64,000 nucleotides of DNA from Dehalococcoidia bacterium. GTDB lineage: Bacteria; Chloroflexota; Dehalococcoidia; Dehalococcoidales; BS750m-G39. Each line of letters opens with the position of its first letter. Position 1 is the first letter of the stretch. The DNA lies in the NCBI GenBank assembly GCA_030608005.1, contig JAUWIX010000001.1, positions 14,375 to 78,374 of the forward strand, in the 5' to 3' direction. The position numbers and the translations under genes are program-made. The notes beneath the pieces were generated by a model. It did no database searches, was not told the origin of the DNA, and worked only from the letters and a program-made list of their open reading frames with translations. Positions 46,665-48,538 of this stretch are shown here, one piece after another.

Positions 46665-47522
46665 ATGAACGAACTAAACATATCAGAGAAAATTCCAAAA
46701 CAGATTAGAAAGTGGACCTGCCACAAGCTTGAGTGCTTTGCTGACTATATTGAAGCCTATACCAGAACGCTGGACAATAATAAGTGTTGCTACCTGGAGC
46801 TATATGCCGGATGTGGCAACTGTATCTGTAAAGGCACCGACTGTGTTATTGAAGACTCAGCACTTCGGGCATTAAGAACCAAAACTAAATTTGATAAGTA
46901 TATGTTTGTGGTAACAGACCACCAAAACGCTAGAAGCCTGAAGCGACTATCAACCCCACACGATACTGCCAATACTGTAGAAATAATAACTGGTAACTGC
47001 ATTAATGAGAAGGTTATCCAGCAGGTATTTGACCTTATTCCCCGCTCAGCATCTAGCCTTGCCCTCATTGACCCCCCGGGATATAGGAAGCTACGCTGGT
47101 CAACAATCAAAAAGCTAGCTGCCCACGGGAAGGACTGGAAAGGCCATAAAATGGAGCTACTCATAATCTTCCCTCTAGAAATGGCTCTCCTGCGGAATTT
47201 AACCCGCCCAGAGTGCGAAGCCTCAATAACCAGGCTCTATGGAAACCGCAAATGGCAGGAGATTAAACAAAACAAATTGGTGGGCAAAATAGGGCTAGGC
47301 AAAGCTAGACAGCGGCTGGCGGAGTTATATAAAGCTGGTCTTAAAGGTTTGGGCTATAGACACATCACCGATTTTAAACCCAGCCGCTTCTCCAAACCTC
47401 CCGTTTACCACATAATTTTAGCCAGTGATAGCGATAGCAGAGCCAAAATCCTGGAGGAGGCTTGGGGCAAGGAGAGATACCTACCCTGCGAGCTACTCTA
47501 CAGCAGGAAAGATAGACCTTGA
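46665..47522 (+). CDS. TcmP-like protein (three-Cys-motif partner protein family, tentative)
   Basis: 285 aa. WT.HKLE.F..YIEAY...L......YLELYAGCG, later IDPPGY....W.TI..LA, and ELLIIFP match the TcmP family as I remember it. The gene is more AT-rich than eno. Confidence 0.45.
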   Translation: MNELNISEKIPKQIRKWTCHKLECFADYIEAYTRTLDNNKCCYLELYAGCGNCICKGTDCVIEDSALRALRTKTKFDKYMFVVTDHQNARSLKRLSTPHDTANTVEIITGNCINEKVIQQVFDLIPRSASSLALIDPPGYRKLRWSTIKKLAAHGKDWKGHKMELLIIFPLEMALLRNLTRPECEASITRLYGNRKWQEIKQNKLVGKIGLGKARQRLAELYKAGLKGLGYRHITDFKPSRFSKPPVYHIILASDSDSRAKILEEAWGKERYLPCELLYSRKDRP

Positions 47523-48538
47523 TGAATAAAATTGGCATTACCACTACCGTTCCCATAGAGGTATTATTAGCCGCCGACTATCAGCCGGTTGACCTGAATA
47601 ATGTATTTATTACTGACCCCAGCCCGGAACGGCTGGTCAATATCGCCGAGCGGGCAGGCTTCCCCCTAAACTGCTGTAGCTGGATTAAAGGAATCTACGG
47701 GGTTTGTATGGATTATGGAATTGATACTATTCTCTGCGTTACTACCGGCGATTGCTCCAACACTATCATGTTAATGGAGGTTCTCAAGCTTAAAGGGCTC
47801 AAGGTTATACCCTTTGCCTACCCTGACAAACCGGCTCCCCAGCAAATGCAGCATGCCTTGCAGGCACTGGCTGAAGCCCTAGGTACCAGCTTGGATGCTG
47901 CCGAGCAAGTCAGAGCTGAGCTCGAGCCCTGTCGCCACCTGGCGCTAAAACTCGACCAGCTTACCTGGAAACAAGGGTTGGTCAGCGGCTGGGAGAACCA
48001 TCTATGGCTGGTATCCACCTCGGATTTCAATCAAGACCACCACCAATACCGCCATCAGTTACAGAAATTATTAGACCACTGCCAACGGCGCCAGCCCTAT
48101 TCGCCAGACTGGCTCAGACTAGCCTATATCGGCGTGCCTTCCGTCTATGGTCAAGACCTCTATCACTACCTGGAGAATAATGGGGCGAGGGTGGTGTTCA
48201 ATGAAATTCAGCGCCAGTTCGCCATGCCCCAGCCAGGAAATTCCCTAGCTGAGCAATACTCAAGCTATACCTATCCATACTCCATATATGACCGGCTAAA
48301 GGACATCACCACCGAGCTCGACCGGCGCCAGATTGATGGGGTCATCCACTATGTCCAAGCCTTCTGCCACCGAGGAATCGGTGACATCATCTTTAGGGAT
48401 GCTATTGACCTGCCCATGCTAACCCTGGAAGGGAACGATGACTTTTTCCTAACCAATCATATAAAAACAAGGGTTGAGGCTTTCCTTGATATGCTCCAGC
48501 GCAGTCGACGAAGGGTAAAAATCGTTGAGGAGGTATAG
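47519..48538 (+). CDS. 2-hydroxyacyl-CoA dehydratase-family (HGD-D/BcrC-like) protein
   Basis: About 338 aa. IGITTTVP.E....A.......N... start, then C.WIKG..G and TGDCSN Cys motifs. The probable ATG at 47522 overlaps the preceding TGA by 1 nt. Confidence 0.55.

Follow-up and report, generated by a model that had tools for sequence, protein, structure and literature searches.

What are the two genes that separate enolase (eno) from glyceraldehyde-3-phosphate dehydrogenase (gap) in a Dehalococcoidia genome, and do their products work as a pair? The genes lie within a 64,000-nt stretch of a Dehalococcoidia bacterium, a member of the Dehalococcoidales (GenBank assembly GCA_030608005.1, contig JAUWIX010000001.1, positions 14,375–78,374), hereafter "the window", and encode a 285-aa protein resembling the TcmP family (TcmP-like) and a 338-aa protein of the HGD-D family (HGD-like). 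Together with eno, gap and an upstream SLOG gene, they form an ancient block, passed on vertically and probably co-transcribed (SLOG-eno-TcmP-like-HGD-like-gap). Within this block, a TcmP-family protein stands beside an iron-sulphur (Fe-S) enzyme of a superfamily different from that of its usual radical S-adenosylmethionine (SAM)-like partner, and we tentatively read the arrangement as an ancient exchange of partners.

All five genes are on the + strand, starting with a SLOG / LDcluster4 gene (44863–45354; PF18306, 153 bits; TIGR00725, 145.6 bits), followed by eno (45375–46661, TAG stop at 46659–46661; open reading frame (ORF), with Pfam Enolase_N/Enolase_C on the identical protein in public contigs), the TcmP-like gene (46665–47522, ATG at 46665, TGA at 47520–47522), the HGD-like gene (47522–48538, ATG at 47522, TAG at 48536–48538) and gap, the last gene of the block (48541–49554; Pfam Gp_dh_N/Gp_dh_C on the identical protein). 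Three nucleotides separate the eno stop from the TcmP-like ATG, the TcmP-like TGA and the HGD-like ATG share bases (TGATG), and the gap ATG follows the HGD-like stop by 2 nt. These boundaries and spacings, as given by the original prediction, agree with the ORF map and the raw sequence, and the same boundaries appear in public gene calls on identical contigs. The prediction had also deduced co-transcription from this spacing, which does not single the block out: 13 of the 48 same-strand neighbour pairs of the window (27%) are at most 5 nt apart (median spacing 24.5 nt), including functionally unrelated ones such as ligA|pth (1 nt), ribF|tyrS (3 nt) and tmk|AAA-ATPase (3 nt), so that tight packing is a property of the genome rather than a hallmark of this block.

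A consensus scan for promoters and terminators offered an independent view of the transcription unit. A terminator-like hairpin after pth (44563–44593, +; 14-bp stem with 9 G-C pairs) is likely its upstream boundary. The block is flanked by just two promoter-like sites, a TTGCTA-18-TATAAT match with extended TG, 14 nt 5' of the SLOG gene (44820–44849, +), and a TTGACA-18-TAAAAT match between gap and the first of two CetZ-like genes (49572–49601, +), the latter of which would mark the start of the next unit; the scan returned no + strand terminator-like site inside the block. Judged from these consensus matches, the transcription unit likely comprises all five genes (44863–49554). Thus, the four-gene co-transcription that had been deduced from spacing is plausible on account of the flanking promoter- and terminator-like sites and the lack of internal ones, but the spacing itself is not distinctive. 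No evidence was found for the accompanying picture of an earlier eno-gap operon into which genes were later inserted: the transcription unit appears to begin at the upstream SLOG gene, and in none of the relatives are eno and gap direct neighbours.

To evaluate how widespread this arrangement is, a scan of GTDB (one genome per species) was seeded with an alignment of TcmP-like proteins and yielded 56 loci, and a metagenome scan was seeded with the HGD-like protein, from which the best 80 of at least 520 matches were used, a non-random and possibly redundant sample; the two scans gave a set of 136 related Dehalococcoidia loci. For each of the two proteins there are hundreds of close relatives, of which the few with an organism name come from Dehalococcoidales or Dehalococcoidia metagenome-assembled genomes (MAGs). 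Nearly all of the 56 GTDB loci carry a Dehalococcoidia or Dehalococcoidales title (two are titled Chloroflexota only, and one "uncultured delta proteobacterium"). With the window proteins as tblastn queries, the order (ligA-pth-)SLOG-eno-TcmP-HGD-gap(-CetZ-dnaX) was recovered in almost every GTDB locus, down to a minimum identity of 36% for TcmP, 60% for HGD and 65% for eno, and the SLOG gene was syntenic 5' of eno in nearly all related loci. Across the 56 species, TcmP identity decays in step with that of the neighbouring genes. The junctions are also maintained among GTDB species, with a median of 3 nt for eno|TcmP and of -2.5 nt for TcmP|HGD (at most 10 nt in 36 of 46 junctions). The pairing hence recurs across the order, in 56 GTDB species and on many metagenome contigs, and the suspicion of a one-off juxtaposition, considered along with the original prediction, fails.

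Evolutionarily, the ratio of nonsynonymous to synonymous substitution rates (dN/dS) against five relatives is 0.15–0.19 for TcmP and 0.13–0.21 for HGD, compared with 0.13–0.16 for eno and 0.09–0.17 for gap, which means that purifying selection acts on the two middle genes no less strongly than on their glycolytic neighbours. Across the order, conservation of at least 95% is seen at 142 of the 338 positions in HGD and at 51 of the 285 in TcmP. Taken together, dN/dS, residue conservation and order-wide synteny indicate that both genes are functional and old. We also observed that the dS of the TcmP-like gene against three relatives (L006, L069 and L007) is 0.66–0.85, higher than the 0.24–0.62 of eno, HGD and gap in those pairs of genomes; the excess may stem from weaker codon bias or from recombination.

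The family assignment of the 285-aa protein stands, with 123.2 bits against TIGR04474 (curated cutoff 53) over model positions 1–261 of 263; the protein has no Pfam match, and none in the PDB by single-sequence search. Comparing the profile of the Dehalococcoidales clade (alignment A4) with an 88-sequence alignment of canonical TcmP (A6) gave a probability of 100% (hhalign, E = 2e-58, 260 columns). The canonical profile in turn matches structures of RlmJ, the 23S rRNA m6A2030 methyltransferase (PF04378), with E = 1.7e-4 by hmmsearch and a probability of 83% by hhalign, a match that spans motif I (YxDxFAGxG), a GSPLIA segment and the DP motif. Significance was reached with the 88-sequence alignment only, a small TcmP alignment (A3) being unconvincing against E. 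coli RlmJ and RsmJ (hhalign). Foldseek matches of the TcmP-like AlphaFold model (pLDDT 50) are weak (E ~1e-3) and almost all to class I methyltransferases. Through this chain of profiles, from the clade to canonical TcmP to RlmJ, and these weak structural matches, the TcmP-like protein is assigned as a full-length member of the TcmP family, and the family appears distantly related to RlmJ.

At the residue level, the window protein has AGCGN in motif I, within YLELYAGCGN (46791–46820, +), and a DPPGY motif (47070–47084, +). The Dehalococcoidales clade as a whole has no direct match to RlmJ and varies in motif I. Six cysteines are conserved in 49–52 of 52 species of this clade and not in canonical TcmP: C19 (46719) and C24 (46734), which form a CX4C pair, C55 (46827) and C60 (46842), spaced in the same CX4C manner and lying directly behind motif I, and C184 (47214) and C275 (47487), all on the + strand. 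Their pattern suggests a metal site that canonical TcmP does not have.

The original prediction had described TcmP proteins as defined by an atypical three-cysteine radical-SAM partner, and this is borne out by the 11 TcmP loci that we examined outside the Dehalococcoidia, all of which have a three-Cys (Cx4-6Cx2C) radical-SAM-like neighbour. In eight, this is a DUF5131 gene (PF07505, "phage Gp37/Gp68", Cx6Cx2C) within ~2 kb; two have an SPL-like gene (PF20903, CX4CX2C) immediately downstream; and in the last, a "radical SAM protein" with CX4CX2C is encoded divergently. A 634-aa protein (P0276) fuses TcmP with an SPL-like domain, which supports a physical cooperation of TcmP and its partner, and the nearest outgroups of the Dehalococcoidales clade are the SPL-paired P0254 and P0258 (31–32% identity). 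In PADLOC, TcmP corresponds to PDC-M41A and DUF5131 to PDC-M41B of the candidate system PDC-M41; the window TcmP-like protein scores 71.5 bits against the PDC-M41A model, and the PDC-M41B model matches DUF5131 proteins only. Canonical TcmP genes are found on plasmids and prophages, a scan of viral contigs with alignment A7 returned two loci only, and the literature names TcmP in passing only, beside the Hna defence helicase and in prophages.

Three canonical loci are of separate interest. One MAG (L148:5343–7848) has the order LexA - TcmP - SPL-like radical-SAM (CX4CX2C) in a housekeeping region, which hints at a link of the canonical module to the DNA-damage response. On an Agrobacterium pAt plasmid (L159), two annotated TcmP genes and a DUF5131 gene adjoin a DEAD/DEAH helicase, which may be an Hna-type defence helicase, and on S. 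meliloti pSymA (L158, unannotated) tblastn located a TcmP with a DUF5131 gene ~1.4 kb away.

In the window, this partner is missing, as had been predicted: the ORFs of at least 100 aa contain no canonical radical-SAM CxxxCxxC motif, and tblastn detected no DUF5131 or SPL-like homologue in either the window or the 136 related loci. The TcmP-like protein thus belongs to the TcmP family but, with the partner missing from the locus, not to the canonical two-gene system. Neither PDC-M41 component B nor an integrase or repeats flank the gene, and its context is a conserved housekeeping block; the locus is therefore not a PDC-M41 system. What it shares with the TcmP + DUF5131/SPL-like modules is the layout, the TcmP-like gene overlapping a downstream gene for a protein with three conserved cysteines exactly as in the TcmP-SPL-like pair of L151. 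It differs in that the neighbour here belongs to the HGD-D superfamily, unrelated to the radical-SAM-like barrel, in that the two genes are lost independently of each other, in its vertically inherited housekeeping operon instead of a plasmid, prophage or defence island, and in the six extra cysteines and degenerate motif I of the Dehalococcoidales clade.

That downstream neighbour matches PF06050 (HGD-D) with 118.5 bits (cutoff 28.4) over model positions 2–342 of 342, in line with the earlier family call. The only significant structural matches of its AlphaFold2 model, a low-confidence one built from an alignment of close homologues (pLDDT 56), are HadB/HadC, BzdNO and MbdON (Foldseek, E 5e-12 to 1e-7). 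Among solved structures, the nearest in sequence are those of the double-cubane protein (C. hydrogenoformans DCCP, 6ENO and 7YYL) and HadC, which match the C-terminal part only (~70 residues for the double-cubane protein), including the conserved FCH cysteine motif.

For a finer view of the cluster ligands, the protein was aligned by hhalign over 303 columns with E. coli YjiM, a seven-Cys member of the family, from which it differs in lacking the N-terminal segment that precedes the aligned region. Of the double-cubane motif CX19CX18-19CX29CX166-170CX32-34CX32C (PMC7317905), three of seven positions are kept: C52 (47675–47677), C78 (47753–47755) and C282 (48365–48367), all on the + strand. In this alignment, C52 falls exactly on YjiM C78 and C282 on YjiM C335, and C282 also aligns with the cysteine of the DCCP FCQ and HadC FCD motifs; the HGD-like C78 sits two residues off the column of YjiM C108 and is taken as its equivalent after a local shift. 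These are the only three cysteines at family ligand positions, conserved in 43 of 43 sequences, so the earlier description of the protein as "Cys-rich" was overstated. Exactly three ligand cysteines being kept, the protein is predicted to be of the [4Fe-4S] type, with one cluster and an open iron site. A double-cubane protein was ruled out by the cysteine motif and by the score against the double-cubane equivalog NF040772 (45.1 bits, cutoff 350).

The HGD-like gene is also solitary. A YjiM query matches only 48293–48496 in the window (tblastn), and for a YjiL query neither the window nor the 8-kb flanks of the 56 GTDB loci gave a match with E below 0.8, which agrees with the predicted absence of an ATP-dependent activator from the window. 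In the systems characterised so far, HGD-D enzymes are paired with an ATP-driven electron "archerase" (PMC7317905). Like HgdAB, HadBC, BcrBC and BzdNO, the HGD-like protein has a full-length HGD-D match, its best fold matches in HadB/HadC, BzdNO and MbdON, and three ligand-position cysteines. Unlike them, it is encoded by a single gene instead of an alpha/beta paralogue pair, is shorter (338 aa vs. 373–431 aa for the structural matches), has no HgdC/BcrAD-type ATPase in the window or the 8–10-kb flanks of related loci and no CoA-metabolism genes nearby, and occurs in a housekeeping block in every sampled lineage of the order; it likewise differs from the double-cubane proteins in having no adjacent reductase (DCCP-R/YjiL). 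By these sequence features, it appears to represent the 2-hydroxyacyl-CoA dehydratase / benzoyl-CoA reductase superfamily in a minimal, single-copy form. Our literature search on Dehalococcoidia and 2-hydroxyacyl-CoA dehydratase found nothing relevant.

How tightly are the two genes bound to each other? The content of the eno..gap slot was scored at the level of the locus, not of the genome, on the 112 GTDB and metagenome loci with a complete slot. TcmP-HGD was the most frequent state (59 loci), followed by HGD only (27), MBL-HGD (15), MBL-TcmP-HGD (6), TcmP only (3) and MBL-TcmP (2), i.e., HGD was present in 107 slots and TcmP in 70, with HGD lacking TcmP in 42 and TcmP lacking HGD in 5. When TcmP is present, HGD is its immediate, overlapping downstream neighbour in 65 of 70 slots; when it is not, the HGD match in many HGD-only loci starts just 7 nt past the end of the eno match (tblastn). 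On a neighbour-joining tree of concatenated eno and gap, the minimum number of state changes is 5 for TcmP, 4 for HGD and 10 for the MBL-fold gene. Because the deep branches of this tree all carry both TcmP and HGD, we infer that the pair is ancestral and that each gene was lost from the locus independently, such loss at the locus not being proof of loss from the genome. The obligate pairing implied by the original prediction is thus contradicted, both by these solitary genes and at the residue level, since no HGD alignment position has a differing >85% consensus between loci with and without TcmP. The three HGD ligand cysteines are invariant in both groups, and the TcmP proteins of HGD-less loci retain most of their cysteines.

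The eno..gap interval behaves as a variable slot, and other genes were seen in it. An MBL-fold hydrolase gene of ~330 aa (PF00753; nearest NCBIfam model Strvi_7410, below cutoff) recurs after eno and 5' of TcmP or HGD, at L028, L032, L037, L039, L046, L048 and L059 (e.g., L059:6647–7639) and at ~20 metagenome loci. QueF (preQ0 reductase) takes the place of HGD in one genome (L030:8944–9369). Two hypothetical proteins also occur, one conserved, of ~390 aa and without Pfam match (L034:8872–10038, L039:2230–3402, L078:2330–3520), the other of ~190 aa with a hydrophobic N-terminal segment (L029, L117, L145).

It is tempting to see in this history a swap of partners, in which the pair is ancestral, the HGD-like protein is the core enzyme and a domesticated TcmP-like protein is an optional accessory, a reading that we favour only tentatively and that fits the presence of HGD in 107 but of TcmP in 70 of the 112 slots. 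The HGD-like core, probably a homodimer, would then perform one-electron (ketyl-radical type) or Lewis-acid chemistry at its open iron site on a housekeeping substrate, and the TcmP-like accessory would bind the substrate or SAM, or use its new cysteine-ligated metal site to serve as redox partner, in the same role toward the HGD-like protein as canonical TcmP toward DUF5131 or SPL-like proteins. The glycolytic flanks would reflect constitutive housekeeping expression in a compact genome and not a glycolytic role. About equally likely, however, is that the two are independent neighbours in a packed operon slot, a self-sufficient housekeeping Fe-S enzyme (HGD-like) and a separate domesticated methyltransferase-fold protein (TcmP-like), the latter for example an RNA/DNA modifier or a non-catalytic relic. 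Several observations weigh on that side and against a partnership: the TcmP-like gene can persist without HGD at the locus, as the five slots with TcmP but no HGD show; losses run both ways; no HGD residue separates lineages with TcmP from those without; and genes of this genome often abut or overlap even when their functions have nothing in common. Functional independence accounts just as well for the TcmP slots without HGD and for an HGD sequence that stays the same with or without TcmP, and the slot itself also takes an MBL-fold gene, QueF and hypothetical proteins. A radical-SAM partner or an activator may, besides, be encoded in another part of the genome. The accessory role proposed for TcmP-like is further weakened by the direct comparison of the Dehalococcoidales clade with RlmJ (hhalign probability 1.3%), by the low confidence of both AlphaFold models, and by the variable motif I and the replacement of the DPP aspartate with Ala or Asn in a few clade members, which make SAM-dependent catalysis doubtful. 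Yet independence sits poorly with the three-Cys Fe-S neighbour of all examined outside TcmP loci and the one fusion, with the retention of the ancestral pair down to 36% TcmP identity, and with an overlapping three-Cys Fe-S neighbour in 65 of 70 TcmP slots, which is unlikely by chance. A more specific version of the partner swap is improbable as it stands, namely a new two-protein Fe-S/SAM system in which the activator-less minimal HGD-D scaffold displaced the radical-SAM-like partner of TcmP; equally improbable are the detail that the TcmP-like protein, with a metal centre next to its SAM pocket, supplies substrate recognition (possibly of RNA or nucleotides) and/or the activating electron, and the suggestion, no more probable, that the outcome is a housekeeping modification specific to Dehalococcoidales.

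The position between two lower-glycolysis genes, conserved throughout the order, might instead point to a role of the pair, or of the HGD-like protein alone, in central carbon metabolism, e.g., the radical dehydration or reduction of a C3 hydroxy-acid derivative. The HGD-D family takes in 2-hydroxy acid dehydratases (PMC7317905), and in D. mccartyi 195 an operon DET0590 (gap)-DET0591-DET0592-DET0593 (eno) has been described whose two middle genes, "operonic hypothetical proteins", co-cluster in expression with central-metabolism genes (PMC3986231). The likeness between that operon and ours, two genes between gap and eno, is one of architecture only, and the published guesses for DET0591/DET0592, a carbohydrate esterase and a maltose-6-phosphate glucosidase (PMC3986231), fit neither TcmP nor HGD-D. 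D. mccartyi did not turn up in the TcmP-seeded scans, and no protein named as Dehalococcoides was among the homologues retrieved with a Dehalococcoidaceae TcmP-like seed. The neighbourhood is moreover one of mixed housekeeping (SLOG within the block; ligA, pth, CetZ and dnaX flanking it), which makes a direct glycolytic role less likely; tpi is ~45 kb away, with its 3' part at the window start, and the context of the TcmP family is nucleic-acid or defence related. Overall, we consider a central-carbon role unlikely. Far less probable still is that the TcmP-like gene is a recently acquired remnant of a defence or mobile element, or that the ORFs are decaying pseudogenes. In favour of acquisition, the TcmP family matches PDC-M41A and occurs on plasmids and prophages, and the gene is, as originally noticed, more AT-rich than eno (GC 45.5% vs. 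52.7%, i.e., 7 points lower). Within the window, however, it is no outlier (GC z = -0.93, rank 9 of 53 genes; z = -0.18, an average value, for GC at third codon positions), and its composition shows no sign of recent acquisition; the synteny in 56 species with identity decaying alongside the neighbours, the dN/dS of ~0.17, the 51 highly conserved residues and the missing component B, integrase and repeats all speak against it. Composition, synteny, dN/dS and conservation thus effectively refute recent horizontal transfer or a defence-island remnant. A replacement of phosphoglycerate mutase was considered separately and ruled out, as Dehalococcoides has archaeal-type iPGM genes (PMC2964296).

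Other features of the window deserve mention. Directly after gap, two tandem CetZ-like tubulin genes (49629–50807 and 50874–52049, +) combine PF00091 with PF21011 (CetZ_C), the C-terminal domain of tubulin-like CetZ proteins otherwise known from archaea. An identical promoter-like TTGACA-18-TAAAAT stands 5' of each, the second at 50813–50842, and one or two CetZ-like copies are syntenic in most related Dehalococcoidia loci. The SLOG gene, which brings the uncharacterised genes of the operon to three, has weak matches to the SLOG domains in the PADLOC models PsyrA and ShosA. On the - strand, a complete Wood-Ljungdahl / CODH-ACS cluster (6962–20837) comprises DUF3786, MTHFR, an AcsE-like pterin-binding methyltransferase, CdhD/AcsC, ACS beta, a CODH of the prismane family, AcsD, FolD, CooC-like ATPases and FTHFS, members that are mostly Pfam-verified, with FolD and the CooC-like gene at 20061–20837 assigned from translations alone. 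Finally, a 217-aa ORF (55228–55881, +) has the lowest GC of the window (39%) and no Pfam match, and is overlapped on the opposite strand by a 126-aa ORF.

HGD-D enzymes catalyse some of the hardest reductions and dehydrations of anaerobic metabolism, and a single-subunit member with no activator gene nearby, in a housekeeping operon found across a whole order of bacteria that matter for the environment, would imply either a new way of activating the cluster or new chemistry. For TcmP, a family that is named but uncharacterised and touched on in just two papers, what is new is its apparent kinship with RlmJ, the constant Cx4-6Cx2C radical-SAM-like identity of its canonical partner (with one fusion), its correspondence to PDC-M41, and the domestication by one lineage of a TcmP beside a different Fe-S enzyme. 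We found no paper describing a TcmP/HGD-D pairing, a TcmP-RlmJ link or the role of this HGD-D subfamily. The annotation proposed here covers two persistent "hypothetical proteins" of Dehalococcoidia and gives testable handles on both families. If the two-protein Fe-S/SAM system were real, its HGD-like protein would be the first HGD-D enzyme to work without an ATP-driven activator and outside CoA-ester metabolism.

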